From a virus, in IMG/VR virus record IMGVR_UViG_3300023184_000107, positions 3,651 through 67,650 of that record: a stretch of 64,000 nt of DNA; one strand, 5' to 3'. The notes below the pieces were generated by a model. The model saw only the letters and a list, made by a program, of their open reading frames with translations. It was not told where the DNA came from and searched no databases. A program made the position numbers and the translations under genes. Of this stretch, positions 1 to 24,552 are shown one piece after another. Within the stretch, counting starts at the first letter, position 1. Each line of letters starts with the position of its first letter.

Positions 1-116
1 TCCCAGAACTTGAGTTTGGCAAATGCATTATTGCTTATATTGCTCTTATACTGTGAGCCATCCAGTGTTTTAAGCTTGGTTACTATTGCGTTTAAAATAC
101 TTGTTCTTTTGGTCAT
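1..116 (-). CDS. tail terminator protein (T5 p142-like), 5' part, runs off the window
   Basis: Hand-translated MTKRTSILNAIVTKLKTLDGSQYKSNISNNAFAKLKFW; ATGA overlap with upstream gene; T5 synteny. Confidence 0.6.
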   Translation of the reverse strand, partial: MTKRTSILNAIVTKLKTLDGSQYKSNISNNAFAKLKFW

Positions 117-1950: not shown

Positions 1951-1998
1951 GTTTGTTCCTTTATTCTTTTATATGCCTAGTACACTAAGCATATAAAA

Positions 1999-2021
1999 GA
2001 AGGAAGCCGAAGCTTCCCTCT
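1999..2021 (-). terminator. intrinsic terminator after major capsid gene
   Basis: Hairpin GGAAGC-TTCG-GCTTCC followed by a T-rich tract on the minus strand. Confidence 0.65.
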
Positions 2022-2031
2022 TTATTTTACA

Positions 2032-3963
2032 TTAAGTTATCCAACGGAATACTGATACGCCTTGACCAAGATTAGTTGTAACTTGCTGAAGACCAGTACG
2101 TAGGCTAGCTACTAATACACGACGCTGTGTTTCAGCCATGTCTTGTGTATCAAAACGTAGACCACGTTGATTACCAGCAATAAAGTTGCCTGCAGCAAAA
2201 GCAATAGCACCATAATTAGTAGTAGTACTACTAGTTCCGGTAGCAGGCTTTGATGGGAACATTGAGCTTACTAACACTGGACTATTACCGATGCTGCCAA
2301 CTTGACCAGTTAATAGTGTAGCTTGTACACCAACTTGATTCATGGTTTGGAAAGAGGTATCGTCTAGTAAGTCGTAATATACTTCTGTAGAAACCACATA
2401 GGTAACTTCGGCAGGATCAAGACCCCAAGCACCTAAGTCTTTACGTAGAGCGCGCATGTTAGCAATAGTAGCAACACCTGCTTGTGTAGCAGTTACTGCA
2501 GAAGTTGCGTCATATAGGGCTAGACCCTTGACTGGATCAGCACCACTGCCGGCACCAATTAGGTAAGCTTTGTCAACTGCACGAGCAACACGGCGAATCA
2601 TGCCATCACGAACAATTGGAAGTATAACCATTAAGGCGTCTTCTTCTTCCTCGTAAGCCACATACTCTAGTGAGGCGACTTTAAATGCACTTAAAGTAAT
2701 TTCTTTTAGTGCATGAGTCTGAGCAGCACCAGCACTAGCAGTAGTACCAAAACTGCTGTTAGCCATCCAAGTTGCATCACCAGCTTCTGGATTCACAGGA
2801 ATAGTCATAACATTGGTTTTCATTGCAACGTTACGTAGTAATGGAGCAATAACTAATCTACGACGTACCTCGGCTTCCATGTTCATGGATACTTCTAGTT
2901 CCCATGTAGCACTTGGTAGGTGAGCACCAGTTTTCTCAATTATACCTGTACCATACTTAGTATCACCAATAGCTTTATTTTGCATCTTGGCTAACAGCAC
3001 GGCTTTTTCACGTTCTGCGTAATCGCCAGTAGTTTTGTCGCTATTAAATTGCATTTTGCTATTTTGAAGAGCAGCAATTTCAGCAGCTTTCTCTTTTAGT
3101 GCGCCATGCAGGTCATCAAGCATTTTGCTGGATTTTGTGCTTTCGTCAGCAAAACGAGCTTCAATATCTTTTAGTAGCTTTTCTGCTCCGCTTTCACCAA
3201 CCTTGATAGAAGCAGCAACAGCTTTTTCTACACGAGTATTAAGTTCAGCTTCAGCTTTAGCTTCTGCAGCTGCAACAGCAGCTGTAGCTGCTTGACTGTC
3301 AAGCAAAGCCTTAGTAGCTTGTTCAGCCGCAGACTTAGCAGCAGCGTCAAGCATAGTTTGTAATTCTTTTGGATCCATTTTCCATTCCTTTGTGATTGCG
3401 CTCTTTTTATCTGAGAGAGATTCTAGCCCTTTAGCTGATTCGGCTTTAGGTATAAATTGAGCTTTGAAACTATTGTATTCTTCAGCGTCTGAAAACGCCT
3501 TAGACAGGTTAAATAAAGTATTTTGGTTACAGGGTACTGAAACTACTGAAATTTCAATTAGCTCTAGTTCTTTTACTAAAAATACTTCGGCGGCTGAGTT
3601 GTATTCTGCATCTAGGATTCTAAACCCTATTGAGAAAGCTGTAAGGACTTCGTCCTTAATTAGACTAAAAACTTCAGCAGCCGCTGAAATTCTTGCTTTT
3701 ATGTAAAGTCCTTTAGCGTCTAGCTTGTGCTCAACCATGCGACCAATAGGGTCATCGTGATCATGCTGAGATAGAATGATTGGGTTCTTCAGGTAGTTTT
3801 GCATACCCTTTTCCCACACGCTTGCTGGTACTACATCGCCTTGTCTATCAACATCTACTGTAGAGGCATAGCCTTCAATAAAAATTGAATCAATCTTGTC
3901 TGTGGCAGCCGGCAGTTCTTTAGTAAAAGCACTATTTATATATAATACTTTTGTTTTATCCAT
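2032..3963 (-). CDS. fused HK97-type prohead protease + major capsid protein
   Basis: N-term IEGYAST..DRQGD, QHDHDDPIG, FSIGF, EISVVSVPCN (protease); C-term HK97-fold capsid; internal SD+ATG at 3378. Confidence 0.9.
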   Translation of the reverse strand: MDKTKVLYINSAFTKELPAATDKIDSIFIEGYASTVDVDRQGDVVPASVWEKGMQNYLKNPIILSQHDHDDPIGRMVEHKLDAKGLYIKARISAAAEVFSLIKDEVLTAFSIGFRILDAEYNSAAEVFLVKELELIEISVVSVPCNQNTLFNLSKAFSDAEEYNSFKAQFIPKAESAKGLESLSDKKSAITKEWKMDPKELQTMLDAAAKSAAEQATKALLDSQAATAAVAAAEAKAEAELNTRVEKAVAASIKVGESGAEKLLKDIEARFADESTKSSKMLDDLHGALKEKAAEIAALQNSKMQFNSDKTTGDYAEREKAVLLAKMQNKAIGDTKYGTGIIEKTGAHLPSATWELEVSMNMEAEVRRRLVIAPLLRNVAMKTNVMTIPVNPEAGDATWMANSSFGTTASAGAAQTHALKEITLSAFKVASLEYVAYEEEEDALMVILPIVRDGMIRRVARAVDKAYLIGAGSGADPVKGLALYDATSAVTATQAGVATIANMRALRKDLGAWGLDPAEVTYVVSTEVYYDLLDDTSFQTMNQVGVQATLLTGQVGSIGNSPVLVSSMFPSKPATGTSSTTTNYGAIAFAAGNFIAGNQRGLRFDTQDMAETQRRVLVASLRTGLQQVTTNLGQGVSVFRWIT

Positions 3964-3971
3964 GTAACTCC

Positions 3972-5156
3972 TTATTGCGGTTCCGGTGTTTTCGGAGCTC
4001 CCCCCACACTGGGATCAACCGCTGATCCAGCAATATTAGCTGGTATTCTTATATCATCATTTCCTGCTAGTTTATCATAGCGCAGTTCAATTCTAGCCTC
4101 GTTAGGAGTAAGAATACCTGCGTTTACTAATTTAGTATGATAATCAGCTACATCTATTAAATCTGGTTGCAGTGCTGATACATTAGCAGTAATAGGGGCT
4201 ATATCGTAACCAAAGAAACGCTCTATTGCTGCAACGTATTTGTTTACAATAGGCATTACAGTTTCCAGGTATAGTAATCTGAGATTTGGCGAAATGTTGG
4301 CATTGTTACCACCATCCAACAGGATAGGTGGCACACCTAGTGCTTTTAGTATTTTAATATCGTGGGTTTTAATGCTCTGATCAAAATCCATTTCTTGAAA
4401 TGTTGCAGAGCTAATAGGATTAAGTTTTAACCCGCTATCAAGAATCATGGGACGTTTAGCACCGTTTTTAGGGCTGTATCTGGTAACCCATTGTGCTATT
4501 GTTTTATCTTTGGCTACCTGACTTAGTGTGTTGTCTGTAGTTAGTACCATTCCGGCAACTGCACCATTTTCAAAGAATTGCTCCTGAAAAGTCTGCATTT
4601 TATACAGTATCTTGATATTTCTGTCAGCGCTAGCTAGTCGGCTAGTACCTCTATATACTGAAGTACTGGACAGGTCTTTAATGTGAATTATTTCTTCTGG
4701 CTTGAAATGTACAATGCTATTGTAGGTATACTCTGCTACAAATGTTTTGGGATCTGTTATGGTTTGTACACTTGCGGCAGGCAGGTGGTATAGAAACACA
4801 CCATCATAGTACATGAATATATTACCCTCTAGGATAAAGTCAGTAAATATATTACATCTGAATTCGTTAACTGTTTGGTAGGGGTTTGGGCGATAGTTCA
4901 GTAAGTTGTATAGACTTTTCTGTCTTACACCTACTACAACTCCCTCTATTACTTTATCTTTAATATCATAGTCTAAACTGGCGCAGGCATTAACAATTAA
5001 ATTAGTACCTCTATTAACTGTCTCTAACTTAATAAATGCATCTTTGTATGTAGCAAGAGCATCAGTACTGACGTTAGTACCGCTTTGATATCTAATTGTT
5101 TCTTGTGCAGGGTTCAGCTTCTGAAAGAGCCCTGTTATTTTATTGTACCATGCCAT
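3972..5156 (-). CDS. portal protein (HK97 family)
   Basis: IIHIKD, FFENGA, ILDSGLK, LGVPP, ILTPNEAR motifs; start reassigned to MAWYNK. Confidence 0.9.
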   Translation of the reverse strand: MAWYNKITGLFQKLNPAQETIRYQSGTNVSTDALATYKDAFIKLETVNRGTNLIVNACASLDYDIKDKVIEGVVVGVRQKSLYNLLNYRPNPYQTVNEFRCNIFTDFILEGNIFMYYDGVFLYHLPAASVQTITDPKTFVAEYTYNSIVHFKPEEIIHIKDLSSTSVYRGTSRLASADRNIKILYKMQTFQEQFFENGAVAGMVLTTDNTLSQVAKDKTIAQWVTRYSPKNGAKRPMILDSGLKLNPISSATFQEMDFDQSIKTHDIKILKALGVPPILLDGGNNANISPNLRLLYLETVMPIVNKYVAAIERFFGYDIAPITANVSALQPDLIDVADYHTKLVNAGILTPNEARIELRYDKLAGNDDIRIPANIAGSAVDPSVGGAPKTPEPQ

Positions 5157-5163
5157 AGTGTTC

Positions 5164-5583
5164 CTAGTAGAAACGCCCAAAATTACCACGCACACTGGCG
5201 GTACCAGTGTGTGTACTTTTAGACTTTTGTATCTCAATCCAGTTATTCTGCTTTACGGCGCTGGCTAAAGATGGTGCTTTACCATATATGCCATGTAGCT
5301 TTATGTGATGGCTACGACATAGTGTGTAAACATCCTTATAAATCTCTTGATGGTAATCTGTAATAAAGTCATCTCTAACTGCGAGTATGCCTGCATCAGT
5401 GCTAATATCATAGCCCTTACGTAGTGACCAGGCATTCAGTAACAGAGTAATAGAGTGAGTATGGTGTAGCTCCAGTTCTTGACTGGTTCCACAGATGTAG
5501 CAGCTGTCTTTTTTGTCATATGCTGCCTTGGCACGATCACGCACCCACTTTACTGGAATACGGTTGTTGGTGTTTGCTGCCAT
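5164..5583 (-). CDS. HNH nicking endonuclease (T5 SciA-like)
   Basis: CYICG..ELELHH...TLCRSHH..LH; lies between portal and TerL as in T5. Confidence 0.8.
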   Translation of the reverse strand: MAANTNNRIPVKWVRDRAKAAYDKKDSCYICGTSQELELHHTHSITLLLNAWSLRKGYDISTDAGILAVRDDFITDYHQEIYKDVYTLCRSHHIKLHGIYGKAPSLASAVKQNNWIEIQKSKSTHTGTASVRGNFGRFY

Positions 5584-5611
5584 TTTTATCCAGCTGTATT
5601 TTTTACTACTA

Positions 5612-5641
5612 TATTATATCATGATAGCAGCATGGTGTCAA
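5612..5641 (-). promoter_or_regulatory. sigma70-type promoter for nickase/portal/capsid operon
   Basis: TTGACA-17-TATAAT on minus strand. Confidence 0.75.
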
Positions 5642-5713
5642 TAACTAAATTTTTGGTGCTGGTTGTAACGCTGTTAGCCCACCAGCACAGACGGCGTAGG
5701 TGGGCTGTAAAAG

Positions 5714-7036
5714 TTATAGTGTGTAGGTGTACAGTGCGTATCTGAGTGCATCTGCAATGTGACTGTTGCGGTCATGGTCTGGACGCTCGATGCCGCTAGC
5801 TGCATCAGTTTTCCAGCGATAGCCGTTCAGCATTTGCAGTGTATGTGTGCAGTGTGGAGCGACCCTAAGCCGGCCAGACTCTACAATGGTCTGAACATAG
5901 GCAATGCCTTCCAGCACCTGCTTTTTAGCCTTAATAGTGCTAATGTCGTAGATGTAGGCTAGGTCACTGGCAAACTGAGCAGCTGCACTATCTATAAACA
6001 CAGTTTCAACTGACCAGCGACTACACAGCTGCTTGAACTGCTCAGCATGCTCAGCAGTTGTGGCCTGTGACTCCAGGTACTCGTCTACCACATGAAATTG
6101 TTGCAGACGTGGATCATAGGCTACGACTACTAGGGCTGTGGGATCTCTGTAACCTGGATCCATGCCAGCTATATACTCACAGCCGTCTGTGGCCGTAAAT
6201 TCTGCTATGTAACTGTCCTGCCAGTCCACATAGATCTGACCCTCAAATGTGGTAAATGACGCCATATACTCCTGAGCGAACTCAGCCTTGCTCATTGAGC
6301 GACGAGCTTCTGCTACGTCTGACTCTGTCATTCTGGTATTCTCAGTATAGTCTGCCTGAATACTTACCCACTCAGGATATTCTGCACTAAAGCCTCTGTC
6401 AAAGAATTCTGAGAACCAGTTAGTGCGGCCGCGAGGCGTGCTAATAAATATGGCCTTGCTGTTAGGCTTGTCTAGTGTGGGACGTAGTGCTACATTAAAT
6501 GCATCCTTGCCACCACTGCTGAGTGCAGCCTCGTCAAATATAATTAAGTCATAGCTGCGTCCAACTGAGCTGTCCACAGTTGAGATTGATCCCATTCTGA
6601 TAGTGCTCCCATTAGCCAACTCTATAACCTTGTCTTTAAGATTATCCTTTTCAACCTCTAGGTCAAAGCTCTTGATCAGCTTGCGCTGTAGTTCAAAACT
6701 GATGGCACTTAGGCTGTAGTTGGGTGACATAATCAACACGTTACAGCCAGGTACTAGTACTACCAGTTGTCCTATCACATTGGCTATGTAGGTTTTGCCC
6801 AACCTGCGGCTTAGTGCTGCACATATGAAACGGTAACGGGGGCTGTTGACAGCGTTAATCAGTGCAGTTTGGGGTCTGTTAAGCTCGTCCCAAGCAGTTG
6901 ATCTGGCATAGGTAACTGCATCAACAGCAGGTAACAGCCGAAGGTAAGCTGCGACTGACAGCTTAATAAACCTAGTACTAGCTGCAAACTCTGTGATTAA
7001 GTCACCACTTACATCATCTCTGCTTATATTTAACAT
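5714..7036 (-). CDS. terL: terminase large subunit
   Basis: Walker A SRRLGKT, Walker B IIFDEAA, ISTPRG, nuclease MDPG and HIADALRY; start reassigned to MLNISR. Confidence 0.95.
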   Translation of the reverse strand: MLNISRDDVSGDLITEFAASTRFIKLSVAAYLRLLPAVDAVTYARSTAWDELNRPQTALINAVNSPRYRFICAALSRRLGKTYIANVIGQLVVLVPGCNVLIMSPNYSLSAISFELQRKLIKSFDLEVEKDNLKDKVIELANGSTIRMGSISTVDSSVGRSYDLIIFDEAALSSGGKDAFNVALRPTLDKPNSKAIFISTPRGRTNWFSEFFDRGFSAEYPEWVSIQADYTENTRMTESDVAEARRSMSKAEFAQEYMASFTTFEGQIYVDWQDSYIAEFTATDGCEYIAGMDPGYRDPTALVVVAYDPRLQQFHVVDEYLESQATTAEHAEQFKQLCSRWSVETVFIDSAAAQFASDLAYIYDISTIKAKKQVLEGIAYVQTIVESGRLRVAPHCTHTLQMLNGYRWKTDAASGIERPDHDRNSHIADALRYALYTYTL

Positions 7037-8166
7037 AGCGCTAGTAACCGTTCTGCATTTGCCAGTGTGGTGTCCCAGTCGTTGTAGTTGTCTACAACGT
7101 ATACTGAACTGTACCAGGGGTTCTGTACGCCTGGCAGCCCCCATCTGAAGTCTGTGTCACGACTAGGCTGCATCATGATACAGGGCTTGCCTAGTGTGCC
7201 AGCTAGGTGCACAATTGAGGTGTCTACTGAGATTACAACATCTAGGCCTAACACATAGTCGATGGTTTGCTGCCAACTGGTACTAGCCAGTGGTGTTATG
7301 GTGCTGTGTTTAGCATCTGCAGGATTTAGACCCCATAATGTTCCATAAGTAGCAAATCTAGCAAAGTTGTAGATGGCAATACTTCGGTTATAGTCGTTGG
7401 CATGGGTTGGGCTACCTGAGGCCACCACTCCAATGTGCCTGCCAGTACCAAAACGGTGTGGTGTGCCTGACAGGTAGTTAGCTACTGGTATAACTCCAAA
7501 TATTCCAGGAAGACTACATAGTGGTATGCTTACAGATCCAGATACTGTTTCTGAGCAAGTATAGCCTGGAAATAAGCAGTTAAGGCTGGCATGACAATTT
7601 ATGATAACGTCACTAAAATACGGCTTGAGTAATGCTAAGTATCTAGCAAACTGTATCTTGTCGCCGATGCCCTGCTCAGTGAGTACACAAATTGAGGTAC
7701 CCTTACTGACACCATCCCATCTGGGTATTGACGTGTCAATTACAACTGAGCCTGGGCCTCTATTAAATCTGTACTCATACATAGGCCAGCCTGCGACACT
7801 ATTTGAGGCCTTGAGTTCACAATTGCCTAAATTCCAGATGCACTCAGTGTAAAGTGGGTCTAGGGTTAGTGCTGCACGATAAAAGCGTTCTGCGTCAGTT
7901 AAGTTATTGCGGCTGTATTCCAGTAGTCCAATGTTATTGAGTGCGCTAGGGTAACTGCCAAAACGTCCATCGCTAAACGGCGTGTTGCTGTTAGCAGCTA
8001 GTAGGTATGCGTCAAGTGCATCATCATCAAGATTCAGATACCTGTAGCAGTTGCCTAGGTTTAGGTAGCACTCCTTGAACTGGTGGGTACGTAGTTGACG
8101 ACGAAAAACTGCTGCAGCCTTGGCATAACGGCCTGACTCTAATAAGCGTGTACCACGATTATACAT
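7030..8166 (-). CDS. TPR-repeat protein with C-terminal GT9/heptosyltransferase-like domain
   Basis: TPR repeats (YLNLG, LNNIG, WNLG); EQGIGDKIQFARY and DVVISVDTSIVHLAG motifs. Confidence 0.8.
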   Translation of the reverse strand: MYNRGTRLLESGRYAKAAAVFRRQLRTHQFKECYLNLGNCYRYLNLDDDALDAYLLAANSNTPFSDGRFGSYPSALNNIGLLEYSRNNLTDAERFYRAALTLDPLYTECIWNLGNCELKASNSVAGWPMYEYRFNRGPGSVVIDTSIPRWDGVSKGTSICVLTEQGIGDKIQFARYLALLKPYFSDVIINCHASLNCLFPGYTCSETVSGSVSIPLCSLPGIFGVIPVANYLSGTPHRFGTGRHIGVVASGSPTHANDYNRSIAIYNFARFATYGTLWGLNPADAKHSTITPLASTSWQQTIDYVLGLDVVISVDTSIVHLAGTLGKPCIMMQPSRDTDFRWGLPGVQNPWYSSVYVVDNYNDWDTTLANAERLLALC

Positions 8167-8647
8167 TAATGGTGTCCTGAACGGGTGCGGTCATAAGTTT
8201 ACTGATTAACTCTGAGTACTTGCTGCCACCTGACTCATTGATCTGAATATTGGTCTGTGTTTTGATGTTGCTGGCGCGTAGGCTTTCCAGCTTGATCTCA
8301 CGATCCATGTGCTCCATAAGCATACGATGCTTGAGTGCTAGTAGCTCTGTGATATCTTTATTGCTGCCAGTTTCTGCCTCATCCATGTCCTGCAATTTGC
8401 GGCGGATAATGCCGTCGAGTAAATCACCCATCCTGAAACGGTTGTTGAATCCCAGGCTGTAGAACACCTGGTCAATGTACTGCTTGACTTCCCGGCGCGC
8501 TAGTGTGTCTGTGATGACGTGCACACTCACGTTTAGACTGTCAGCCACAGCTGCAAGGTCTGGATTTTCTAGATAGGTGTTGGCAATTAGTAAGGCTTCA
8601 GGACTTATGTTAAGTGCTTCAGCTGGGGTAACAGTGGGTAGTGACAT
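8159..8647 (-). CDS. terS: terminase small subunit
   Basis: ISPEAL.IANTYL, GFNNRF, SNKDI, QININ motifs recalled from T5-like TerS; start reassigned to MSLPT. Confidence 0.8.
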   Translation of the reverse strand: MSLPTVTPAEALNISPEALLIANTYLENPDLAAVADSLNVSVHVITDTLARREVKQYIDQVFYSLGFNNRFRMGDLLDGIIRRKLQDMDEAETGSNKDITELLALKHRMLMEHMDREIKLESLRASNIKTQTNIQINESGGSKYSELISKLMTAPVQDTINV

Positions 8648-8669
8648 AGTGGAGTGGGTAGTTTTGATA

Positions 8670-8698
8670 ATTATAACTGGTTTAAGCAAGCATGTCAA
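8670..8698 (-). promoter_or_regulatory. promoter upstream of terS
   Basis: TTGACA-17-TATAAT on minus strand. Confidence 0.75.
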
Positions 8699-8987
8699 CT
8701 CCAAAATTTCGTGAGTTTGGCACCCAAAGTTTTGCAGGGGTTTTTTAAATATGGCCGTGTGGGAGGGCGGGACTGCTATCATTATAATAGCAGTCTGCGA
8801 ACCGCCCTATGCTATTATAATAGTATAAACTGTATAAACTGTTTATACGGTTTATATGCACTAGCATACAAAAATCAAAAAGTCAACAAAAAAATTTAAA
8901 TTTATTTTAATTTTTTTTTTGTGTTTTCTGTAAGAATGCCTTGTAAACCCCTATAATACGTTAACGCAACAAAATCGGTAACTCAAA

Positions 8988-9341
8988 ATGAAACGCACTC
9001 CCCTTGAATTGTTTTTCGCTAAGTCACTCAAAATGGCACGCTCACGCAACAAGATGAAGGGTATGGCTAACGACGACAATGTAACTGTGGCCTATCTTGT
9101 AGGCTTGTTTCATGGGCAAAATGGGCTTTGCGTGCATACTGGTGAAACCATGACAATTGAACGGGGTTTAATTGATGGTGCAGTTTGTCCTGACTTATGC
9201 ACTATGGACAGAATCGACAATCGTATGGGATATGATGTTGGGAATATCATGCTTTGCTGCGATGGTATCAATCGTATGCGAGGTGACTTATCCCTGAAAA
9301 AATTTCGGGCATTGTGCAAGAGAATCGGTCTTGCAGATTGA
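8988..9341 (+). CDS. HNH-like endonuclease
   Basis: MDRIDNRMGYDVGNIMLCC..INRMR motif. Confidence 0.65.
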   Translation: MKRTPLELFFAKSLKMARSRNKMKGMANDDNVTVAYLVGLFHGQNGLCVHTGETMTIERGLIDGAVCPDLCTMDRIDNRMGYDVGNIMLCCDGINRMRGDLSLKKFRALCKRIGLAD

Positions 9342-9365
9342 TTATATACTACAGAAACATATAAT

Positions 9366-9482
9366 ATGAAAACATATACTAACAAACAAATCACAGAATT
9401 TGCAAAATTCTGCACTCGGCACGATATTACTTTCAGTAATATCACAGAATATAATGCTGCAATAGCACAATACTATATATAA
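9366..9482 (+). CDS. 38-aa microprotein (paralog of 9884-10009)
   Basis: Hand-translated MKTYTNKQITEFAKFCTRHDITFSNITEYNAAIAQYYI. Confidence 0.6.
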   Translation: MKTYTNKQITEFAKFCTRHDITFSNITEYNAAIAQYYI

Positions 9483-9495
9483 TTGTATACTATAC

Positions 9496-9655
9496 ATAAC
9501 CTGTGGATAACCTGTGGATATGTATAACCTGTGAATAACCTGTGGATAACCTGTGGATATGTATAACCTGTGGATAACCTGTGGATAACCTGTGGATAAC
9601 CTGTGGATATGTATAACCTGTGGATAACCTGTGGATATGTATAACCTGTGGATAT
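9496..9655. repeat. tandem array of 12 DnaA-box-like 9-mers (11/17-bp period)
   Basis: 6x TGTGGATAA, 1x TGTGAATAA, 5x TGTGGATAT, all co-oriented. Confidence 0.9.
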
Positions 9656-9711
9656 AGTATAGTAACTAATCTAAATTTTGCGCCAGTACCGGCGCCAGTA
9701 TGCCTGCTATT

Positions 9712-9787
9712 GGTCGCGTCAAGCGACCGCTATGCTAATCATAGCGGGGCGCGCCAAAATTATATCACACTATAGCGCACTCTGCAA
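9712..9787 (-). promoter_or_regulatory. palindrome cassette 1 with leftward promoter
   Basis: GGTCGC-n5-GCGACC + GCTAT-n7-ATAGC; TTGCAG-17-TATAAT on minus strand (9759-9787). Confidence 0.7.
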
Positions 9788-9883
9788 CAAAAATAGTTTT
9801 ATTTATTTTTGAGATTTGCAACAATACCACACTTCCTGGTGCAATCTGGTATATAATGGACACTTAGCAACAAGGGGCAAAAA

Positions 9884-10009
9884 ATGCGAACACAATTCAC
9901 GGCCAAGGAAGTTACAAAATTTCAGAGCTTTGCAAAGCGTCATGGTATGCGCTTTGCAACAATGGCAGAATATTTAGCAGCAATTGCACAATATTTCAAA
10001 AAAACCTGA
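9884..10009 (+). CDS. 41-aa microprotein (paralog of 9366-9482)
   Basis: MRTQFTAKEVTKFQSFAKRHGMRFATMAEYLAAIAQYFKKT; AAGGGG SD and upstream TATAAT. Confidence 0.65.
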   Translation: MRTQFTAKEVTKFQSFAKRHGMRFATMAEYLAAIAQYFKKT

Positions 10010-10133
10010 TATAATCACTGTATAGCAACAAGGGGTTAAAAATGTTTCTCATGCGGTACTGCTAACGCATATATTCTAGCGGCGGTAAACGGGTAACGAT
10101 AAACCCATTTTTTGGTAAATTTAGGAAAAAATC

Positions 10134-10460
10134 ATGTCTGAAAAAATTGTGAATTATACGCCTGAGCAAACTCTGGCTATGGTGGCTGACTATGTGTCGG
10201 GTGTTTCGGTAGAAACCCTTGCTCAAAATCTAGGCAAGTCTGTTCGTTCTGTTGTAGCTAAACTGAGCCGTGAAAAGGTTTATGTCGCTAAGGTTTATGT
10301 GTCAAAAACTGGTGAAAAGCCTGTGCGTAAGGATGCTCATGCTGACGCTATCGGCGCTGTGCTGAAGCTGACTGAGGCAGAAACCGAAAGCCTGACCAAA
10401 GCCAATAAAACGGCTTTAGAGAAAATTTTTACTGCACTGGCTAACAGTCGGCCTGTTTAG
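10134..10460 (+). CDS. A2: T5 A2-like pre-early DNA-binding protein, copy 1
   Basis: HTH-like SVRSVVAKL..KVY, RKDAH, SLTKANK match recalled T5 A2 pattern; AGGA SD; pre-early position. Confidence 0.7.
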   Translation: MSEKIVNYTPEQTLAMVADYVSGVSVETLAQNLGKSVRSVVAKLSREKVYVAKVYVSKTGEKPVRKDAHADAIGAVLKLTEAETESLTKANKTALEKIFTALANSRPV

Positions 10461-10464
10461 TAAG

Positions 10465-10606
10465 CAATAGGGGTTTACCCCTATTGACAGCGGCCAGGTT
10501 TGGCCGCTGTTTTTTGCCGACCAAAAACTGGTCGCTTCAAGCGACCGCTATCTTTTCGATAGCAGCACTGGCTAGCTATTATAGCACACTGTTCTGCAAA
10601 CAGCAA
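10465..10606 (-). promoter_or_regulatory. palindrome cassette 2 with leftward promoter
   Basis: TAGGGGTTTACCCCTA, GGTCGCTTCAAGCGACC, GCTATCTTTTCGATAGC; TTGCTG-17-TATAAT (10578-10606). Confidence 0.7.
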
Positions 10607-10663
10607 CAAAAATATTTTTTGCTGTTTGCAAAAATACCACACTTTACCCTGTATAATTTACCT

Positions 10664-11014
10664 ATGGACAAAAAAGCACTTCAAAAATATGCCGAGAATT
10701 TATGGCTAGAATACTGCCTGATTTTCCCTAAACTGGTAAAATATGATTGTCCTGATATTATACTAAATAACAGATTCACCAAAACAGCAGGCTGTAGTTA
10801 TCAGGAATTAAATGTGGTGCATATTGCAGCAAAATTTATGCCCAAGCATAAATCAGCTATGCTATCAGTTATATTACCGCATGAATTAGCGCATCAAATA
10901 GACTTTAATCTATATGGTGCATCCGAGAAAAAATGCGGGCATGGCAAATCATGGTGTAAAGTTATGGTAAAAATAGGTTTACCCGCTACACGTTATCACT
11001 CATTAGAAATTTAA
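10664..11014 (+). CDS. SprT-like zinc metalloprotease
   Basis: RFTKTAG, HELAH, HGKSW motifs; likely leaderless start MDKKAL. Confidence 0.8.
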   Translation: MDKKALQKYAENLWLEYCLIFPKLVKYDCPDIILNNRFTKTAGCSYQELNVVHIAAKFMPKHKSAMLSVILPHELAHQIDFNLYGASEKKCGHGKSWCKVMVKIGLPATRYHSLEI

Positions 11015-11236
11015 ATGATTAAATATATAGCATGGTTTGGCACTGTGGTTTCTATTATTGGTGCTTTTTGTGTGGCTTCGCAGATAATACTATCTGGCTA
11101 TATACTATTCTCGCTGGGTTCAATATCCTGGCTAATTGTAGGGTTTTCAAAACGGGATAACGCTCTCTGCGTTTTGAATGGCACTTTTTTTCTTGCTAAC
11201 TTACTGGGATTATATAATGCTGTTTCAACTATTTAA
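11015..11236 (+). CDS. small 3-TM membrane protein
   Basis: Three hydrophobic segments; coupled to upstream stop. Confidence 0.65.
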   Translation: MIKYIAWFGTVVSIIGAFCVASQIILSGYILFSLGSISWLIVGFSKRDNALCVLNGTFFLANLLGLYNAVSTI

Positions 11237-11335
11237 ATTTATATTCTACGTGCCACTGGTTGCAGCCGTGGCTGTATCTACCTATATATTAGAAATAATA
11301 TTAAAATCCCTGATAGGCATAATTGATATATTGGA

Positions 11336-11453
11336 ATAAGGGTTTACCCTTACTACAGCCAGGCTGTGGTAAGAAAACCACGGTCGCTTGAGGCGACCGC
11401 TATCAAAAAGATAGCGGCGCCAAAATTATAGCACACTATAGCGCACTCTGCAA
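11336..11453 (-). promoter_or_regulatory. palindrome cassette 3 with leftward promoter
   Basis: Five consecutive palindromes then TTGCAG-17-TATAAT (11425-11453). Confidence 0.7.
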
Positions 11454-11546
11454 CAAAAATAGTTTTATTTATTTTAGACATTTGTAAAAATACCACACTT
11501 GTTGGCTGTATAATGGGCACTTAGCAGCAATAACAGAAAGCAAAAA

Positions 11547-12008
11547 ATGCCAATTAAACGTATAGCCATATATGATATGGATGGAACAATTGTAGACTCT
11601 AGCCATAGGTATCGCACAATTGATAATAAGATTGATTTAGAATACTGGCGCAATCATCAGCATTTAGCCATGCACGATAAACTGTTGCCGTTAGCCGTTC
11701 AATATCAGTCAGATTTGCAGGATTCAACCTGCTATACCATAATTGCCACCGCTAGAGTTATGAATGAACCAGATTACTGTTTTGTTAATCAGGTACTAGG
11801 CAAACCAGATTATCTTATCTCCCGTAATCAGGGTGACGCTACATCCGGCAGCAAACTCAAAATAGCAGGTTTAGCAAAATTTTTCAATCTTAAAAATTTT
11901 CAAGGCGCAGCAGCAGTATTTTATGAGGATAATACAGCATATCTTAAAGCTGTATGCGATAGGTTTAATATCATGGGGGTTTATATTCCATCTAATCAGG
12001 GACACTAA
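11547..12008 (+). CDS. HAD-superfamily phosphatase (PNK 3'-phosphatase/nucleotidase-like)
   Basis: YDMDGT, TAR, K, YEDN HAD motifs I-IV. Confidence 0.8.
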   Translation: MPIKRIAIYDMDGTIVDSSHRYRTIDNKIDLEYWRNHQHLAMHDKLLPLAVQYQSDLQDSTCYTIIATARVMNEPDYCFVNQVLGKPDYLISRNQGDATSGSKLKIAGLAKFFNLKNFQGAAAVFYEDNTAYLKAVCDRFNIMGVYIPSNQGH

Positions 12009-12051
12009 CCTAAACTGTGCTATAATCCACACTTAACTACAGAAACCCAAA

Positions 12052-12750
12052 ATGTCTAAAAAACAATACTTTGCTATCCTTGATACAGAAACCACCATGC
12101 AGAATACTATTGCAGATTTTGCAATTATTATTGTGGATAGGCAAGGCAAAATCTATAACCAGTGCGCTGTACTGGTTGCAGACCACTATGGCAAATATGA
12201 ATTATTCCATGATAAAAATGCTAATGATATATGGGGTTATGCTGGCCTAAATAAGCGCAAAGCTAATTATGTTGCCATGCTAGATTCTGGTTCACGTATG
12301 CTGGCATCAGTTAATGCAGTTAATCGCTGGATTCAGCAAGCAATTGGCAAATATAATCCCGTACTAACAGCATATAATATTGCATTTGACGCTGACAAAT
12401 GCGAAAAAACTGCAATAGATATATCTGGCTTTTCGTCACAATTTTGTTTATGGCAGGCAGCAGTCGGCAATATCTGCAATACTAAACAATATCGTAATTT
12501 TGTGCTGGAGAATCACAGTTTTAATAAAGTCACAGAGTATGGTAATATGACATTTTCAACTAATGCCGAAACTGTGGCAGGGTTTATTAAGGGTGAATTT
12601 ACACTAGAGCCACATACTGCACTTGAGGATGCCCGAGATTTTGAATTGCCAATACTTACAGAGGTTATTAAGAAACGCAATTGGCGCGAAAAGATAACCC
12701 CTTATAACTGGCGAGAATTTCAGGTCAAAAATCACTTTACCGCAAAATAA
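12052..12750 (+). CDS. DEDDh 3'-5' exonuclease
   Basis: LDTET, AYNIAFD, HTALEDA. Confidence 0.85.
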   Translation: MSKKQYFAILDTETTMQNTIADFAIIIVDRQGKIYNQCAVLVADHYGKYELFHDKNANDIWGYAGLNKRKANYVAMLDSGSRMLASVNAVNRWIQQAIGKYNPVLTAYNIAFDADKCEKTAIDISGFSSQFCLWQAAVGNICNTKQYRNFVLENHSFNKVTEYGNMTFSTNAETVAGFIKGEFTLEPHTALEDARDFELPILTEVIKKRNWREKITPYNWREFQVKNHFTAK

Positions 12751-12790
12751 TAATATAACCCCAGAGGGGGTTATAATATTATAATAGCTG

Positions 12791-12936
12791 GCCGCTATCT
12801 ATTTGATAGCGGCCAGGCTGTGGTAAGAAAACCACGGTCGCTTGAGGCGACCGCTATGCTTTTGATAGCGAGGCGCCAAAAATTATAGCACACTACAGCA
12901 ACCTGGGTCATTGGAAAAAGCTATGGGATCAATAGC
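12791..12936. repeat. palindrome cassette 4
   Basis: 3x GCTAT-n7-ATAGC, GTGGT-n6-ACCAC, GGTCGC-n5-GCGACC, leftward TATAAT (weak -35). Confidence 0.7.
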
Positions 12937-13058
12937 TAAATACAATCAGGTTTTTAATTTTTATCTTGAAAATCTTGCAGAACAGGTATATAATGGATAC
13001 TTAGCAGGCAGTAAAGGGAAACTGTTAAAAATCCCTGATTCTCTTGAAGGAAAATGTG

Positions 13059-13370
13059 ATGACTACCAAAAATGTGAATTATACCCCAGAACAAACTCTG
13101 GCTATGGTTGCTGACTATGTGTCCGGTGTTTCTGTGGAAACCCTTGCACAAACTCTGGGCAAATCAGTACGCTCTGTGGTTGCTAAACTCAGCCGTGAAA
13201 AAGTTTATGTGGCTAAAGTGTACGTTAGCAAGACTGGCGAAAAGCCTGTTCGCAAGGATGCCCATGCGGATGCAATCGGTGCTGTGCTGAAATTGACTGA
13301 GGCAGAAACCGAAAGCCTGACCAAAGCCAATAAAACGGCTTTAGAGAAAATTTTTGTGGCTTTAAGCTAG
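13059..13370 (+). CDS. A2: T5 A2-like protein, copy 2
   Basis: 93/94 core residues identical to copy 1; AAGGA SD. Confidence 0.7.
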   Translation: MTTKNVNYTPEQTLAMVADYVSGVSVETLAQTLGKSVRSVVAKLSREKVYVAKVYVSKTGEKPVRKDAHADAIGAVLKLTEAETESLTKANKTALEKIFVALS

Positions 13371-13429
13371 GATAAAGGGCCTAGGCCCTTTATTGTGGTA
13401 TAATCTTTTTTTAACTAAGGAAACTAAAA

Positions 13430-13732
13430 ATGACTTCTAACTCTAAACTTACAGCCACACAAAAATTTATCTTGCGTGACTGGCTGGACATAGCTATTGA
13501 AGACAATATTCAAGTTGTGAATTTGGACAATGTTACCACAATGGCCTATCGGGATTGTGGGGATAATGTGGAATTTTCTACTGCTGTAATGTCTAGCAAT
13601 GAGAAAAAATTCCGGGCTAAAGTTGGCGAATACCATGCACTAGAGCGCTTTTTTGATGGTAAGCGTGTTATAATGCGGCGCATTGATTTTGTTATCATGT
13701 GCGAAAATGTCTGGGATTTTTGGGCACTTTAA
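13430..13732 (+). CDS. hypothetical protein (related to 33277-33663)
   Basis: AAGGA SD, upstream TATAAT; shared ALE(R/K)FFDG motif. Confidence 0.65.
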   Translation: MTSNSKLTATQKFILRDWLDIAIEDNIQVVNLDNVTTMAYRDCGDNVEFSTAVMSSNEKKFRAKVGEYHALERFFDGKRVIMRRIDFVIMCENVWDFWAL

Positions 13733-13734
13733 GC

Positions 13735-13849
13735 AATAGGGGTTTACCCCTACAACAGCAGCCAGGCTGCTGTTGTGAAAAAACCACGGTCGCTTCAAGC
13801 GACCGTATTTCTTTGTAGGGGTAAACACCTATGTGGTATTTTTGCCACA
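13735..13849. repeat. palindrome cassette 5
   Basis: AGGGGTTTACCCCT, CAGCAGCCAGGCTGCTG, GGTCGCTTCAAGCGACC, TGTGGTATTTTTGCCACA. Confidence 0.7.
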
Positions 13850-13886
13850 AGCTGGTAACTGCTGATTTTACTGATATAATACACCC

Positions 13887-14153
13887 ATGATAGAAATAAT
13901 CGGATGGACTGGTTCAGCACTGTTTGCTCTTTGTGGATTGCCGCAAGCAGTACAGTCCACACGTGAGGGCCATTCACATGGCCTAAGCTGGCTGTTTTTG
14001 CTAATGTGGTTTTGGGGTGAGATTTTTACACTATGCTATGTTTGGCCTAAAATGGATTATCCACTGCTTGCCAACTATTTCGTTAATCTAGTTTTTGTGG
14101 TTATAATCCTGTTCTACAAAATTTTTCCAAGAGCTAAAAATGAAGATGTTTGA
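13887..14153 (+). CDS. PQ-loop / SemiSWEET-family membrane protein
   Basis: IGW.G..LFA.CGLPQ motif, three TM segments. Confidence 0.75.
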   Translation: MIEIIGWTGSALFALCGLPQAVQSTREGHSHGLSWLFLLMWFWGEIFTLCYVWPKMDYPLLANYFVNLVFVVIILFYKIFPRAKNEDV

Positions 14154-14268
14154 AGTTGAATTCTATGGTGCTTTTCCTGCCAGAATTGTATTTGCAGAAA
14201 ATCGTCAAGCCATCTGGCGCAGATGGCCGGGCATAGTCAGGCAAATTCACAGAATCTGTATACTATAA
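14140..14268 (+). CDS. 42-aa hypothetical protein
   Basis: Hand-translated MKMFEVEFYGAFPARIVFAENRQAIWRRWPG...; overlaps upstream stop. Confidence 0.45.
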   Translation: MKMFEVEFYGAFPARIVFAENRQAIWRRWPGIVRQIHRICIL

Positions 14269-14275
14269 AAAAGAT

Positions 14276-14505
14276 AGCAGCCAGACTGCTATCTTTTCGA
14301 TAGCGGTCGCTTGAAGCGACCAGACCGTAATCTCAGTCCTTATATAGCATAAGGACTGGGATTACGGTCTTTGTGGTAAAAAAACCACGGTCGCTTCAAG
14401 CGACCAGTAATCGGGTGTAATCGGGTGTTTTTTTGGGTTTGTGGTAAAAAAACCACGGTCGCTTGAAGCGACCGCTACCAAAAGCATAGCGCATGCGCTA
14501 TGCGC
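14276..14505. repeat. dense palindrome cluster (cassettes 6-8 plus a 22-bp-stem hairpin)
   Basis: GGTCGCTT(C/G)AAGCGACC at 14305, 14389, 14457; hairpin 14322-14370. Confidence 0.8.
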
Positions 14506-14597
14506 CAGTGGTAGGCCTAGTGGCCGCGCCAGTGGTAGGCCTAGTGCTTGTGCCAGTGGTAGGGCTAGTGCTTGCGCCAGTGGTAGGACTAGTGGTA
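14502..14597. repeat. 4 x 24-bp tandem repeat
   Basis: Unit GCGCCAGTGGTAGGCCTAGTGCTT with minor variants at 14502, 14526, 14550, 14574. Confidence 0.85.
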
Positions 14598-14840
14598 GTC
14601 TGACCCTAAGCTGCGGCCAACTGCCTGGAGTCCAAAATTTCGCTAATTTTGAAAATTTTGTGCACACACTGGCAATCGGCAGCTTAGGGTCGGAAGCAGT
14701 TGCGTCAGCTGCGATCCCTGCTGACCACAACTGTGATAGTACTGTCGTCAAAAGCTGCAGCTATACCCATACCACAAAAATTATTTACTTGTAGACTCAG
14801 GCTGATCATGCTATAATAGAGTTACACAAAAGGAGATATA

Positions 14841-15014
14841 ATGCGCTTAACATTTGATGCCTGGATGCAGCAGACGGAGCAACTAGTGGTGGCACGTTGC
14901 GGCTTAGGTGTGGATGACCTACCTGACTGTGACTATAGAAGCTGTTATGATGCAGGTATCACACCTGCTGAAATGGCTGCAGAGGCAGTTGATAATGCAC
15001 GCTATGATTTCTGA
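14841..15014 (+). CDS. 57-aa acidic hypothetical protein
   Basis: MRLTFDAWMQQ...DDLPDCDYRSCYDAGITPAEMA; AGGAG SD; TTGTAG-17-TATAAT promoter. Confidence 0.7.
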   Translation: MRLTFDAWMQQTEQLVVARCGLGVDDLPDCDYRSCYDAGITPAEMAAEAVDNARYDF

Positions 15015-15154
15015 TGGGCCTAGAGGTCTGGTGAAAGAACACCTTAAAATACAGCTATCATCTAATCTTAGGACCACGGCGTGTTCTACCTGAACACAAG
15101 GCCGTGAAATGCAGGTCTAGGGTGTACACATCCTTTCAAAATCCTGCTAGCGCA

Positions 15155-15190
15155 CAAAGCCCACAGCTGTTATGGTTGTGGGCTTTGTTG
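15155..15190. terminator. bidirectional-looking terminator
   Basis: CAAAGCCCACAGC...GTTGTGGGCTTTG hairpin. Confidence 0.6.
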
Positions 15191-15212
15191 TTGTTGGTGG
15201 TGCTGCGCCAAG

Positions 15213-15241
15213 ATTATACAGTGGCCGGCCTAACTTGTCAA
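15213..15241 (-). promoter_or_regulatory. orphan consensus promoter
   Basis: TTGACA-17-TATAAT on minus strand with no ORF downstream. Confidence 0.7.
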
Positions 15242-15341
15242 GTGTCTATTTCTGACCCTAAGCTGCAGCACCTTAACCAAGTGCCAGCGCAAAAAAGCCC
15301 ACAAACTTGTGCAGTTTGTGGGCTTTTGGCATTAATGGCAC

Positions 15342-15680
15342 TTATAGCGGCTTAGGGTCAGATTGTGGGTCTAAACGGCTGCTGATTAAGACTAATACAG
15401 CTTTATTGACCTTTTCCAGACTTTCCAGAAATTCTGAGTTGGTGTCCAGCAGCACGGCGATGCGGTCTATGATGGCTGACTTCTTGACGGGTACATCCCC
15501 TCGCTTTGTAAGGTACTGTTTTTTCTGGTAGACACCCAAACTTGACAGCTTGGCAATTATGCTACGCTCGGGTACTGGCTCGTTGGCTAGCACCGTAAAG
15601 CACATAGCTATGTCTTGCACCGTAGCTCCATCTGCATACATGTCCAGTAATTTTTGTGTTAGTGTTTGATCGTATTTCAT
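15342..15680 (-). CDS. diverged A2-like DNA-binding protein (third paralog)
   Basis: RSIIAKLSSLGVYQKK.Y..K.G..PVKK...LESLEKVNK aligns by eye with the A2-like copies. Confidence 0.65.
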   Translation of the reverse strand: MKYDQTLTQKLLDMYADGATVQDIAMCFTVLANEPVPERSIIAKLSSLGVYQKKQYLTKRGDVPVKKSAIIDRIAVLLDTNSEFLESLEKVNKAVLVLISSRLDPQSDPKPL

Positions 15681-15726
15681 GTTAGTGTTTGACCCTAAGC
15701 TGGATCTGGTGTTGTCTGGATGGCTG

Positions 15727-16482
15727 TTACCAGGGCACATCGCTAGCTGCAGCTACAGCAACTGCCCTGGTAGTCGCAGCCAGCACGTCAGTGTCTATTA
15801 GTGGTGGTGGCATGGTGTCCCAATTATCAGGGTCTAGTACCATACTGTCTGTTCGTACGGCAGGATGTGCACACCATACTTGACTTAGCATGGTTAGTGC
15901 TAGTGCTGGTAGTGTGCCCCACTCTGTGTGCTTGAGACCTGTCAGTGTCCAAGTAGTCATAGCAGGCTTCAACTGCCCTTGCTTAGGGCCACTTTTAGTC
16001 TGCAATCCTAGAGCGCGCAATTCCAGTGTTCTGGCTGCAGTGATCGCTGGTGGTACGCACGTCATGGCTGCTAATAATGGTGCATCTACCACATACTCAA
16101 GTCCAGTACGACTCCACTCGCTGTAACTATAGCCCTGATAGCGCTTGATACCAGCTAGTACTAGTGGAACTAAGGCACAACTATTAACACTGGTCTCAGC
16201 AGTCTGAGTTCTCACTAGGCTACTACGACGCATTTTAGTGCAGACCCTCCATAGTCCCAGTGCCCAATCATTGTCCTTGAATTGCCTGACAAGTGCAACT
16301 GGATCTAACTGACCCTCAGCTGTACGGGTTACTGTTAGACCGCCATAGTATGCTGCAATCTGTGGCAGCATCCAGCTGTTATGTGTGGTTAAGCCCATGG
16401 CAGTTGCCCACTCAGCCAGCTGTTCTGTGTCTAGGCCAGCACACTGTGCAAATGGCCAAGCTGCAATATCATTTTTAGTCAT
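15727..16482 (-). CDS. hypothetical protein
   Basis: 251-aa ORF from MTKNDI; no recognised motif. Confidence 0.65.
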   Translation of the reverse strand: MTKNDIAAWPFAQCAGLDTEQLAEWATAMGLTTHNSWMLPQIAAYYGGLTVTRTAEGQLDPVALVRQFKDNDWALGLWRVCTKMRRSSLVRTQTAETSVNSCALVPLVLAGIKRYQGYSYSEWSRTGLEYVVDAPLLAAMTCVPPAITAARTLELRALGLQTKSGPKQGQLKPAMTTWTLTGLKHTEWGTLPALALTMLSQVWCAHPAVRTDSMVLDPDNWDTMPPPLIDTDVLAATTRAVAVAAASDVPW

Positions 16483-16832
16483 GTAGTGGCCAGCCCGCCT
16501 GTACAAAGTGGGACAGCCGGCTTTAGTAATTGTGTTTGATTTAGTGTCATTTTTAAGCGTGGTTTTACAGAAAAAGTCGGAGTTAGTAGTACTTATTTTG
16601 CCCCGGGCCAGTGATCGCACACAATCTCAGAAATTGCAGCGTCTCACTAAACCTGATGTGGCGGAGCACGATTTAGTGGACTTCCCATTTCTGGATTCTG
16701 TGAATCACTGACGGGACAAATATCCTTAACTGCTTTATATATTAAATTATATCACACTTGCAAAGCAAAAAACAACTGTGTTTTTTGTTAGCCGGTGTAA
16801 ATTTGGCTTTTTTGCTTTAGGGTTAATGAAAT

Positions 16833-17555
16833 TTACACCTCAAATACACACTCCCTATAGTTACAGTTGCGGTTGTAACCATAGGGATTGGCTACACAAC
16901 GTGTTGTGCCTAGTGTTATGTCAGTTGTGGTATGAGTATGTCCAAACAGCCAAGTGGTGTTGTGTAGTGTGCTGATGTAACCGCCAAGGCGATTAGCAAA
17001 GTAGTTGTTGATTAGGTTGTCACCTGCATACTCTGGAGCAATGCACTCTGTAGCTGGTAAAAAGTGTGTGACAATGATGCGAGTGCCTACTGTGGCTGCA
17101 TATGCCTGCTGTATGTAGTCTGCATGTGTGTCATACAGCCGGCTGCATGCAGCGGTATCGAAACCCCTAATGTGTCGGAAGTCATTGATGCCATTAGCTG
17201 CGGCATGTGCAGCAAGGGGGTTGTTAGCAAAGTTAGTCCACAGTGTAGCACCGATAAAGGTCACTGACTGCAGCTGGACCATGCCAGGATTAAGCAGGTG
17301 AATACCAAGATCTCTGGCAACAGTGCCAATAGCACGATCAAACTCTGCAATGCTAGTTCCGTAGTATTCGTGATTGCCTGGTAGATATACAATGTTTTTT
17401 TGTTCTGCATGGAATTTAGCTAGTGCACCGGCAGTTTTGTGGATGCCAGCATGTACGTCGCCGGCTAACACCAACACATCTTCGCCTTGGCTTTGGTAAA
17501 TGCTGGGATTATCGTAGAATTCCAGGTGTAGGTCACTGAGTAGTCGGATTTTCAT
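16833..17555 (-). CDS. calcineurin-like metallophosphoesterase
   Basis: SDLHLE, AGD, GNHE, THF, GHTH. Confidence 0.9.
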   Translation of the reverse strand: MKIRLLSDLHLEFYDNPSIYQSQGEDVLVLAGDVHAGIHKTAGALAKFHAEQKNIVYLPGNHEYYGTSIAEFDRAIGTVARDLGIHLLNPGMVQLQSVTFIGATLWTNFANNPLAAHAAANGINDFRHIRGFDTAACSRLYDTHADYIQQAYAATVGTRIIVTHFLPATECIAPEYAGDNLINNYFANRLGGYISTLHNTTWLFGHTHTTTDITLGTTRCVANPYGYNRNCNYRECVFEV

Positions 17556-24524: not shown

Positions 24525-24552
24525 TATAATTAGTGTTGTTTAGCAGTAGACA

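Follow-up and report, generated by a model that had tools for sequence, protein, structure and literature searches.

In the oriC arrays of E. coli, sites bound by the initiator protein DnaA that face the same direction and lie 2 bp apart are the rule, according to Leonard and Grimwade (PMC4451416). In phage T5, DnaA boxes have been known from the terminal repeat since 1987 (Heusterspreute 1987, as cited by Davison, bioRxiv 10.1101/866236), and their capture by DnaA during DNA entry was proposed. The present analysis concerns a tandem array of 12 DnaA boxes at 9496-9655 of a 64,000-nucleotide stretch of virus DNA (hereafter the window), which corresponds to bases 3651-67650 of the 67,650-base IMG/VR contig IMGVR_UViG_3300023184_000107, rated 64% complete. 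As judged from its sequence, the phage is an uncultivated, distant relative of T5 from lake water, and it was present in lake and freshwater metagenomes of several studies. The array is read here, tentatively and at somewhat less than an even chance, as an optional element for the docking of DnaA at a genome junction or end. In a literature search that left subscription journals mostly outside its scope, a tandem array of this kind was not described, and DnaA boxes were tied to phage genome ends only in the Davison preprint and in a 2026 PNAS paper citing it, as far as the available parts of these texts extend; in the available part of the BF23 paper, Davison is cited only on two-stage injection.

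The array is read on the minus strand, and its 12 boxes, at 9502-9655, comprise six copies of TTATCCACA, one of TTATTCACA and five of ATATCCACA. The consensus TTATNCACA was matched, always on the minus strand, at 9502, 9530, 9541, 9569, 9580, 9591 and 9619, which are seven of the eight matches in the window (the eighth is at 32649), and ATATCCACA at 9513, 9552, 9602, 9630 and 9647. With up to one mismatch allowed, 12 of the 33 matches in the window crowd into 154 bp. All positions listed in an earlier note on this DNA, which had described seven consensus and five one-mismatch boxes arranged head-to-tail with a period of 11 or 17 bp, were recovered. The start-to-start distances are 11, 17, 11, 11, 17, 11, 11, 11, 17, 11 and 17 bp, the array being built from two units, TGTGGATAACC (11 nt) and TGTGGATATGTATAACC (17 nt), and the boxes are grouped in blocks of 2, 3, 4, 2 and 1 that start at 9502, 9530, 9569, 9619 and 9647. 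Tandem Repeats Finder reported the region as 9496-9654, with a period of 39, 4.1 copies and a score of 239. The term 'helically phased', also applied in the earlier note, holds within the blocks of 2-4 boxes; it fails across the 17-bp steps, each of which by arithmetic turns the next block to another face of the helix. A reading of the array as RNA was rejected (the strand folds no better than its shuffles, with a z-score of -0.07, and an Rfam search of 8500-15500 returned 0 matches).

The count of 12 boxes comes from one assembly, and no Logan contig listed for four runs spans 9525-9780. Contigs break off within or at the array, at 9525 (run X1), 9520 (X3) and 9490 (X2), and restart at 9780; these three runs, which are from different studies, break at the same left edge of the array. 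The start of the array was reached in the X3 strain as well, which shows 132 differences over 7000-9520 (about 95% identity). Such breaks match the behaviour of a repeat longer than the 31-nt assembly word, which argues against there being only one or two boxes, the figure of 12 not being confirmed thereby.

Two sequence properties of an oriC array were found in this element: seven of its 9-mers match TTATNCACA and five do so with one mismatch, all 12 boxes lie on the same strand, and inside the blocks neighbours in the same orientation are exactly 2 bp apart (7 of the 11 intervals, those of 11 bp). Bacterial genomes of many phyla contained the exact 30-mer made of three units, in 114 stretches whose clusters reach 18 boxes; the number expected there by chance is estimated at about 1e-6. 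Ten of the open reading frames (ORFs) flanking the bacterial 30-mer were sampled, and two encode DnaA, four DnaN, one RecF and one a plasmid RepA. Because the 30-mer stands beside DnaA, DnaN and RecF ORFs, the phage unit with its 2-nt spacer is taken to be the unit of chromosomal origin arrays; this 11-nt unit being shared with the oriC arrays of very diverse bacteria, binding of DnaA is strongly expected, and we infer with some force that host DnaA would bind the array. In the bacterial loci sampled, several elements come after the long array, always on the 3' side of boxes that read TTATCCACA: a few boxes in flipped orientation, a GC cluster, DnaA-trios (TAC repeats) and AT-rich DNA. Next to the last box of these examples stand GGCCC and then TACTACTAC. 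In Candidatus Binatia and other little-studied phyla (L148, L180, L211, L230, L234 and L245), 14-17 tandem DnaA boxes were seen right after dnaA, with flipped boxes, GGCCC and TAC repeats following in L148, L211, L230, L234 and L245. A 3.8-kb plasmid of a Pantoea symbiont (L165) carries 18 boxes adjoining its RepA gene.

DnaA boxes were then compared among phages. The left terminal repeat of T5 contains six boxes with no more than one mismatch, four of which, at 9437/9449 and 9498/9510, form two pairs 12 bp apart, the same pairs as in the Davison preprint (bioRxiv 10.1101/866236). The cultured T7-like Shigella phage A7 (Berlinvirus, MK685668.1; loci L261 and L264) has a 177-bp direct terminal repeat (1-177 = 39882-40058) with eight DnaA boxes in the same orientation, four of them perfect; a literature search found no paper describing these boxes. 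In a distant T5-like contig (L035), whose small terminase is 40% identical to that of the window, two perfect boxes lie 11 bp apart inside the pre-early module. Neither 9000-10400 nor the array itself had a megablast match in the phage collection, and four records were obtained in a sensitive mode only.

The 19-mer of two boxes was found in at least 119 IMG/VR stretches, 28 of which have clusters of 5-11 boxes. In 12 of these 28 (L012, L033, L036, L038, L073, L074, L096, L099, L104, L113, L119 and L124), an array of 6-11 boxes is found 0.8-1.6 kb upstream of a gene for the large terminase whose reading direction is away from the array. A relative of the large terminase subunit (TerL) occurs in 27 of the 119 loci, about what locus size predicts, and only the fixed placement 0.8-1.6 kb upstream is informative. 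The eight TerLs compared from this family are 62-95% identical to one another and 25-32% to that of the window, and the family lacks close relatives in culture (42% over a part of the protein at best). Small ORFs stand between array and terminase gene, and 8 of the 133 ORFs that flank the arrays encode M15-type peptidases, a common type there; DnaA, DnaN and initiator families were absent from the 25 commonest families listed, of the 33 found across these 133 ORFs (IMG/VR clusters). Arrays at an end or junction were thus seen in three lineages: this T5-like phage, T7-like phages such as A7, and the uncultivated family in which they precede the terminase operon. In both the window and A7, the direction in which the boxes read TGTGGATAA is inward, to the first genes; in L038 and L099 it is towards the terminase gene. 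In about 10 of 52 whole-contig rows, counted by eye, a box-pair match lies no more than 400 bp from a contig end, roughly twice the uniform expectation, an excess that is explicable by assembly breaks in repeats. The freshwater Limnohabitans phage DC31 (PQ492658.1, L262) has five perfect boxes at 2949-3066, two in one direction and three in the opposite one, where small genes leave a gap of 930 bp free of genes; the spacer of one pair, TGTATAACC, resembles that of the 17-nt unit in the window, possibly a hint at the kind of host.

The placement of the array in its own genome bears on the same point. It lies in a divergent interval, with the packaging genes, ending in the small terminase subunit gene (terS), on one side and a pre-early module containing a Dmp-like gene on the other. 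The genes run in the order of the T5 right end followed by the terminal repeat, that is, head, portal, terL, terS, Dmp module, leftward early genes and replication genes; on this synteny, the gene order is that of T5 with the terminal repeat collapsed into a single copy. Depth was taken from the Logan contigs, which give one figure per contig. In X1 it is 136.9 to the left of the array, 262.7, 227.3, 246 and 229.7 inside about 9780-14513, and 182 and 164.6 to the right, falling to 119.9 from 16058; in X3 it is 13.9 to the left, 26, 25.4, 24.6 and 25.3 inside, and 18.6 to the right. In two of the three runs, depth thus rises about 1.8-fold over a segment of roughly 5 kb whose start falls between 9525 and 9780, which hints at a terminal repeat of about 5 kb beginning there. 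The junction between packaging and pre-early genes is probably located at, or no more than about 250 bp from, the outer boundary of this 5-kb repeat. The supposition that the array is near a genome end was therefore strengthened by synteny with T5 and by the depth step in two of three runs, both of which fall short of proof. The coordinates of the features around the array are collected in Table 1.

Table 1. Features flanking the DnaA-box array and genes next to it; positions are those of the window.
Feature	Position	Strand	Remarks
Large terminase subunit, T5 type	5714..7144	-	46-49% identity to Vibrio T5-like phage large terminases
Small terminase subunit (terS)	8159..8782	-	phrog_3802, E 2e-34
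HNH / endonuclease VII-like gene between terS and array	8988..9341	+	homolog not detected in closest relative L127
38-aa ORF, left of array	9366..9482	+	paralog of the 41-aa ORF 9884-10009 right of array; both match one L127 ORF
Easily melted AT-rich flank	9461..9500		40-mer stacking energy -39.8 vs window mean -50.5 (sd 4.0)
Second AT-rich flank, right of array	9640..9679		40-mer stacking energy -41.3
Two copies of GCGCCAGT	9680..9700	+	7 copies in window vs 0.95 expected
GC-rich hairpin unit pair (GGTCGC..GCGACC, GCTAT..ATAGC)	9705..9750		first of 8 hairpin-unit copies over 9.7-14.5 kb
Repeated promoter/operator module ahead of first rightward small gene	9751..9875	+	includes leftward promoter-like site 9759-9787
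Possible molecule end	9754		one X1 contig reaches 9754, then sequencing-adapter letters; one contig, one run, hint only
Dmp-like phosphatase, T5 pre-early module marker	11547..12008	+	37% identity to T5 Dmp, E 1.2e-12; conserved in relatives
Gene-poor complex region: hairpins, inverted repeats, 24-nt tandem array 14501-14596	14280..15370		candidate inner terminal-repeat boundary

Docking of DnaA at a junction or end is favoured because of the placement of the array, the boxes verified in the repeats of A7 and T5, and the missing hallmarks of an origin (see below). ATP-bound DnaA would fill the seven consensus boxes and then spread cooperatively to the neighbours 2 bp away, as in oriC arrays, and the outcome would be four or five short DnaA oligomers of single polarity over about 160 bp. 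Such a block of host protein beside a genome end or a concatemer junction might hold, pause or shield the entering end, and it could also halt transcription crossing between the pre-early and packaging modules. In this scheme binding would follow from the conserved specificity of the box, and the benefit to the phage is a guess. Broader still, and rather doubtful, is the possibility that unrelated phages have independently placed origin-grade DnaA arrays at their ends or junctions, with DnaA co-opted as a structural cofactor of entry, end protection or packaging.

Several observations weigh against a DnaA-docking role. Relatives were defined as the 17 IMG/VR loci encoding a terS relative (39-63% identity), and a scan of all 17 found a DnaA-box cluster in none. 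The arrangement from terS to pre-early genes recurs in eight of them, those with enough flank; in the closest, L127, whose large terminase is 86% identical, the interval holds small ORFs with no tandem array and no box cluster, and an alignment with L127 showed that this interval is not homologous. The array is lineage-specific and, being missing from all 17 relatives including L127, dispensable for the family. In about 10 of the 17 (among them L128, L129/L136, L130/L131, L132, L134, L135 and L143), the stretch from terS to the pre-early genes holds tandem arrays with unrelated motifs, so that what is required at this spot may be no more than a bound protein of some kind, or the function may lie in recognition by terminase. 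As members of one family (eight TerLs compared), the 12 loci with an array upstream of the terminase gene amount to one independent case. No homolog of A1 or A2 was found in the 67.6-kb contig (64% complete). The depth in X2 shows no clear step: it is 20.7 to the left of the array, 28.4, 21.2, 17.4, 30.9 and 20.1 inside, and 20.6 to the right (one contig, 13326-17000), so that 21.2, 17.4, 20.1 and 20.6 are about at or below the flank and only 28.4 and 30.9 are higher; given the lack of clear doubling there, the extra depth in X1 and X3 could reflect a mixture of strains. The adapter-joined end at 9754 could likewise be due to chance. The nick consensus of T5, which we take to be GCGC, is unconfirmed in the BF23 paper, and the 9754 end was not interpreted as a nick.

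An origin of replication dependent on DnaA, the best placed of the alternatives, is considered unlikely. In this case the AT-rich left flank would be opened by DnaA oligomers, after which the phage's DnaB-like helicase, its primase and its polymerase would take over. The array itself matches oriC arrays, 18 such boxes serve the symbiont plasmid L165 next to its RepA gene, and the replication genes scanned included none that resembles an initiator (the replication block comprises a split NAD ligase, a D5-like regulator, the DnaB-like helicase, primase, PolA, a second helicase and SbcCD). Moreover, few 40-mers of the window are less stable than 9461-9500, which lies on the 3' side of boxes that read TTATCCACA, the side taken by the unwinding element in the sampled bacterial origins; but the whole of 8.8-9.5 kb is AT-rich, and the flank overlaps the end of a small ORF. 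Neither a GC cluster nor a run of DnaA-trios was found in the flanks on either side of the array, unlike the bacterial examples, and there is no flipped box: the 12 boxes all face the same way, in which they resemble the bacterial arrays' long accessory part and differ from the boxes beside the trios, which are flipped. For the origin proposed in the earlier note there is the easily melted flank on the correct side; the GC cluster and DnaA-trios are missing. The closest relatives replicate without this array, and the origins of T5 map near the centre of its genome, according to the preprint (Davison, bioRxiv 10.1101/866236). GC skew was rejected as an origin marker, as it follows gene direction only.

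The second alternative, again an unlikely one, is a repeat linked to packaging, that is, a local version of a family-wide tandem array by terS that marks where terminase assembles or cuts, bound by either DnaA or TerS. This would accommodate the arrays of other motifs between terS and the pre-early genes in about 10 of the 17 relatives, several of whose contigs end in or near them, as well as the DnaA arrays upstream of the terminase operon in another family. In the window, GCGCCAGT words lie on both sides of the higher-depth segment, those at the far end being at 14502, 14526 and 14574, and the possible molecule end is 99 bp from the array. Set against these are the L127 interval, which is without any array, and the lack of evidence that TerS reads a DnaA box. 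In addition, the motifs of the relatives share GACCCTAAGC, which is contained in some of their arrays (the L135 unit, the L136 flanks); because this word is scattered genome-wide in the window and absent near terS, the arrays of the relatives may be a different element. 

The 10-mer GACCCTAAGC was also followed through the window in its own right. It is usually followed by TG and has 13 perfect copies (187, 5861, 14602, 14682, 15254, 15350, 15691, 25136, 31408, 38060, 45557, 48222 and 53250), with 24 copies at no more than one mismatch against 2.67 expected, and its copies, the majority of them on the plus strand, are scattered over coding as well as non-coding DNA. Possible functions are those of a nick site, an element of a promoter, or a word for recognition.

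Titration of DnaA of the datA type is established biology, and a cell has a few hundred DnaA boxes and about a thousand or more DnaA molecules. Replicated phage genomes might act as a sponge in the same manner, soaking up DnaA and stopping host initiation; once replication has multiplied the copies, each with seven consensus sites, these sites could equal the DnaA pool in number. A block right after first-step transfer, the form in which the sponge had been put forward, is however implausible because a lone entering genome supplies only 12 sites (or 24). The Dmp-like gene suggests host DNA destruction in the style of T5, which would make such a block redundant, an argument weakened because A1 was not found. 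A sponge also leaves the placement at a junction or end in three lineages unexplained, and this role is regarded as distinctly improbable.

Least probable of all, and to be given very little weight, is that the boxes are sites for a phage protein that merely resemble DnaA boxes, or a repeat expanded by the assembler: relatives have unrelated arrays at this spot and no contig bridges the array, but the match reaches the 2-nt spacer and the spacing of origin arrays, the 30-mer occurs 114 times in bacterial genomes, the contig was found to encode no DnaA-type DNA-binding domain (PF08299; control genomes were positive), and three runs from different studies break at the same array edge.

To the left of the array, the genes over 113-8782 run leftward and include those for the portal, a protease-capsid protein, the head-tail adaptor and the small terminase. 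The true start of terS is probably the ATG at 8647, most relatives aligning from about residue 37-47, and the first 45 codons of the listed ORF are probably untranslated; a sigma-70-type promoter matching at 12 of 12 positions lies on the minus strand at 8698-8670, within the long terS frame and just upstream of this ATG. One ORF of 643 aa at 2032-3963 has matches to head-maturation proteases in its N-terminal part and to major head proteins, and looks like a fused protease-capsid gene.

To the right, small rightward genes extend from 9884 on and include the Dmp-like phosphatase. The earlier note had placed a leftward promoter at 9759-9787, pointing into the array. TTGCAG, 17 nt and TATAAT were indeed present there, with a TG upstream of the second hexamer; the first hexamer matches at only 3 of 6 positions, for which reason the promoter scan did not list the site. 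It may be an operator instead, because it belongs to a module, with a palindrome, that is repeated before several rightward genes. Promoter/operator modules of this kind recur ahead of successive pre-early genes, and the hairpin unit GGTCGCTTGAAGCGACC has eight copies within 9712-14497. Contigs of related strains join 9770 to 13816, 10264 to 13197 and 11433 to 13816, as if pre-early genes were cassettes lost or swapped by recombination between the promoter/operator modules. Two genes for 108-aa DNA-binding proteins with weak D5-like matches (10123-10422 and 13048-13347) are 85% identical in nucleotides, and a third, weaker paralog lies at 15342-15740; the relatives likewise carry two copies.

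Beyond the pre-early module, leftward genes at about 15.3-22.5 kb include those for thymidylate synthase and endolysin. Twenty-four transfer RNA (tRNA) genes are clustered at 24194-36675, and ARAGORN reported a permuted gene resembling transfer-messenger RNA at 29875-30300 that overlaps a tRNA-Cys gene and is perhaps falsely called. Two neighbouring genes encode the NAD-dependent DNA ligase, 40023-40976 its N-terminal half and 41009-41821 its C-terminal half.

Among known systems, the bacterial oriC arrays (R5M-tau2-I1-I2 and C3-C2-I3-C1 of E. coli, and the dnaA-dnaN arrays of Binatia and Poribacteria) share the 9-mer, the 2-bp spacer and the single orientation with the phage array, and in arrays of the Binatia/Poribacteria type the 11-nt unit is identical. 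An oriC array adjoins dnaA or dnaN and is accompanied by boxes in flipped orientation, a GC cluster, DnaA-trios and an AT-rich element for unwinding; the phage array has an AT-rich flank only. Clusters of the datA type also consist of high-affinity boxes outside an origin, but datA has five boxes and a site for IHF and acts within the cell cycle; the present array is in a lytic phage with 12 sites per copy. Lambda cosB and the short-repeat arrays flanking the T7 terminal repeat likewise consist of repeated protein sites, located where the small-terminase gene gives way to the cut site or the boundary of the repeat; they bind phage terminase (with IHF as host helper in lambda), whereas here it is the word of the host initiator that is repeated.

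The boxes in the injection-stop (iss) region of T5 resemble the array in being consensus DnaA boxes in the non-coding DNA of, or beside, the terminal repeat of a T5-like phage. In T5, 6-8 boxes, in pairs spaced by 3 bp, are embedded at the terminal repeat's inner end, in the inverted repeats IRD'/IRC' and IRC/IRD; here, 12 tandem boxes of one orientation lie at the boundary on the terminase side. The phage is of the T5 kind by its large terminase, its Dmp-like gene and its replication module, and the array is neither at the inner end nor composed of box pairs in inverted repeats. It is not a member of the T5 iss class, because it lies at the opposite end of the candidate repeat and has no inverted-repeat frame, and because A1 and A2 were not found in the contig. 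By position it is 14280-15370 that corresponds to T5's iss; a box scan of this region found no DnaA-box cluster, and four GACCCTAAGC words are present. The idea of an injection signal is best kept in the form of a role linked to the end or to injection, which fits the placement best, rather than as the injection-stop site of T5. The array would be a much stronger form of the T5 feature, with twelve origin-like tandem sites at the other boundary of the repeat.

If DnaA docking aids entry, end stability or packaging, it would represent a new host dependency of lytic phages and a new job for a universal bacterial protein, and a role of DnaA beyond replication and transcription. Natural controls are at hand in the close relatives that have the same gene order and no array, or arrays of other motifs. 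The cultured phage A7 has the same kind of element, tandem DnaA boxes in one orientation at a phage genome end; it differs in belonging to another phage family and in that its array is demonstrably inside a short repeat. With A7, whose 177-bp repeat consists mostly of DnaA boxes, the idea of host DnaA on phage ends becomes testable in laboratory phages.

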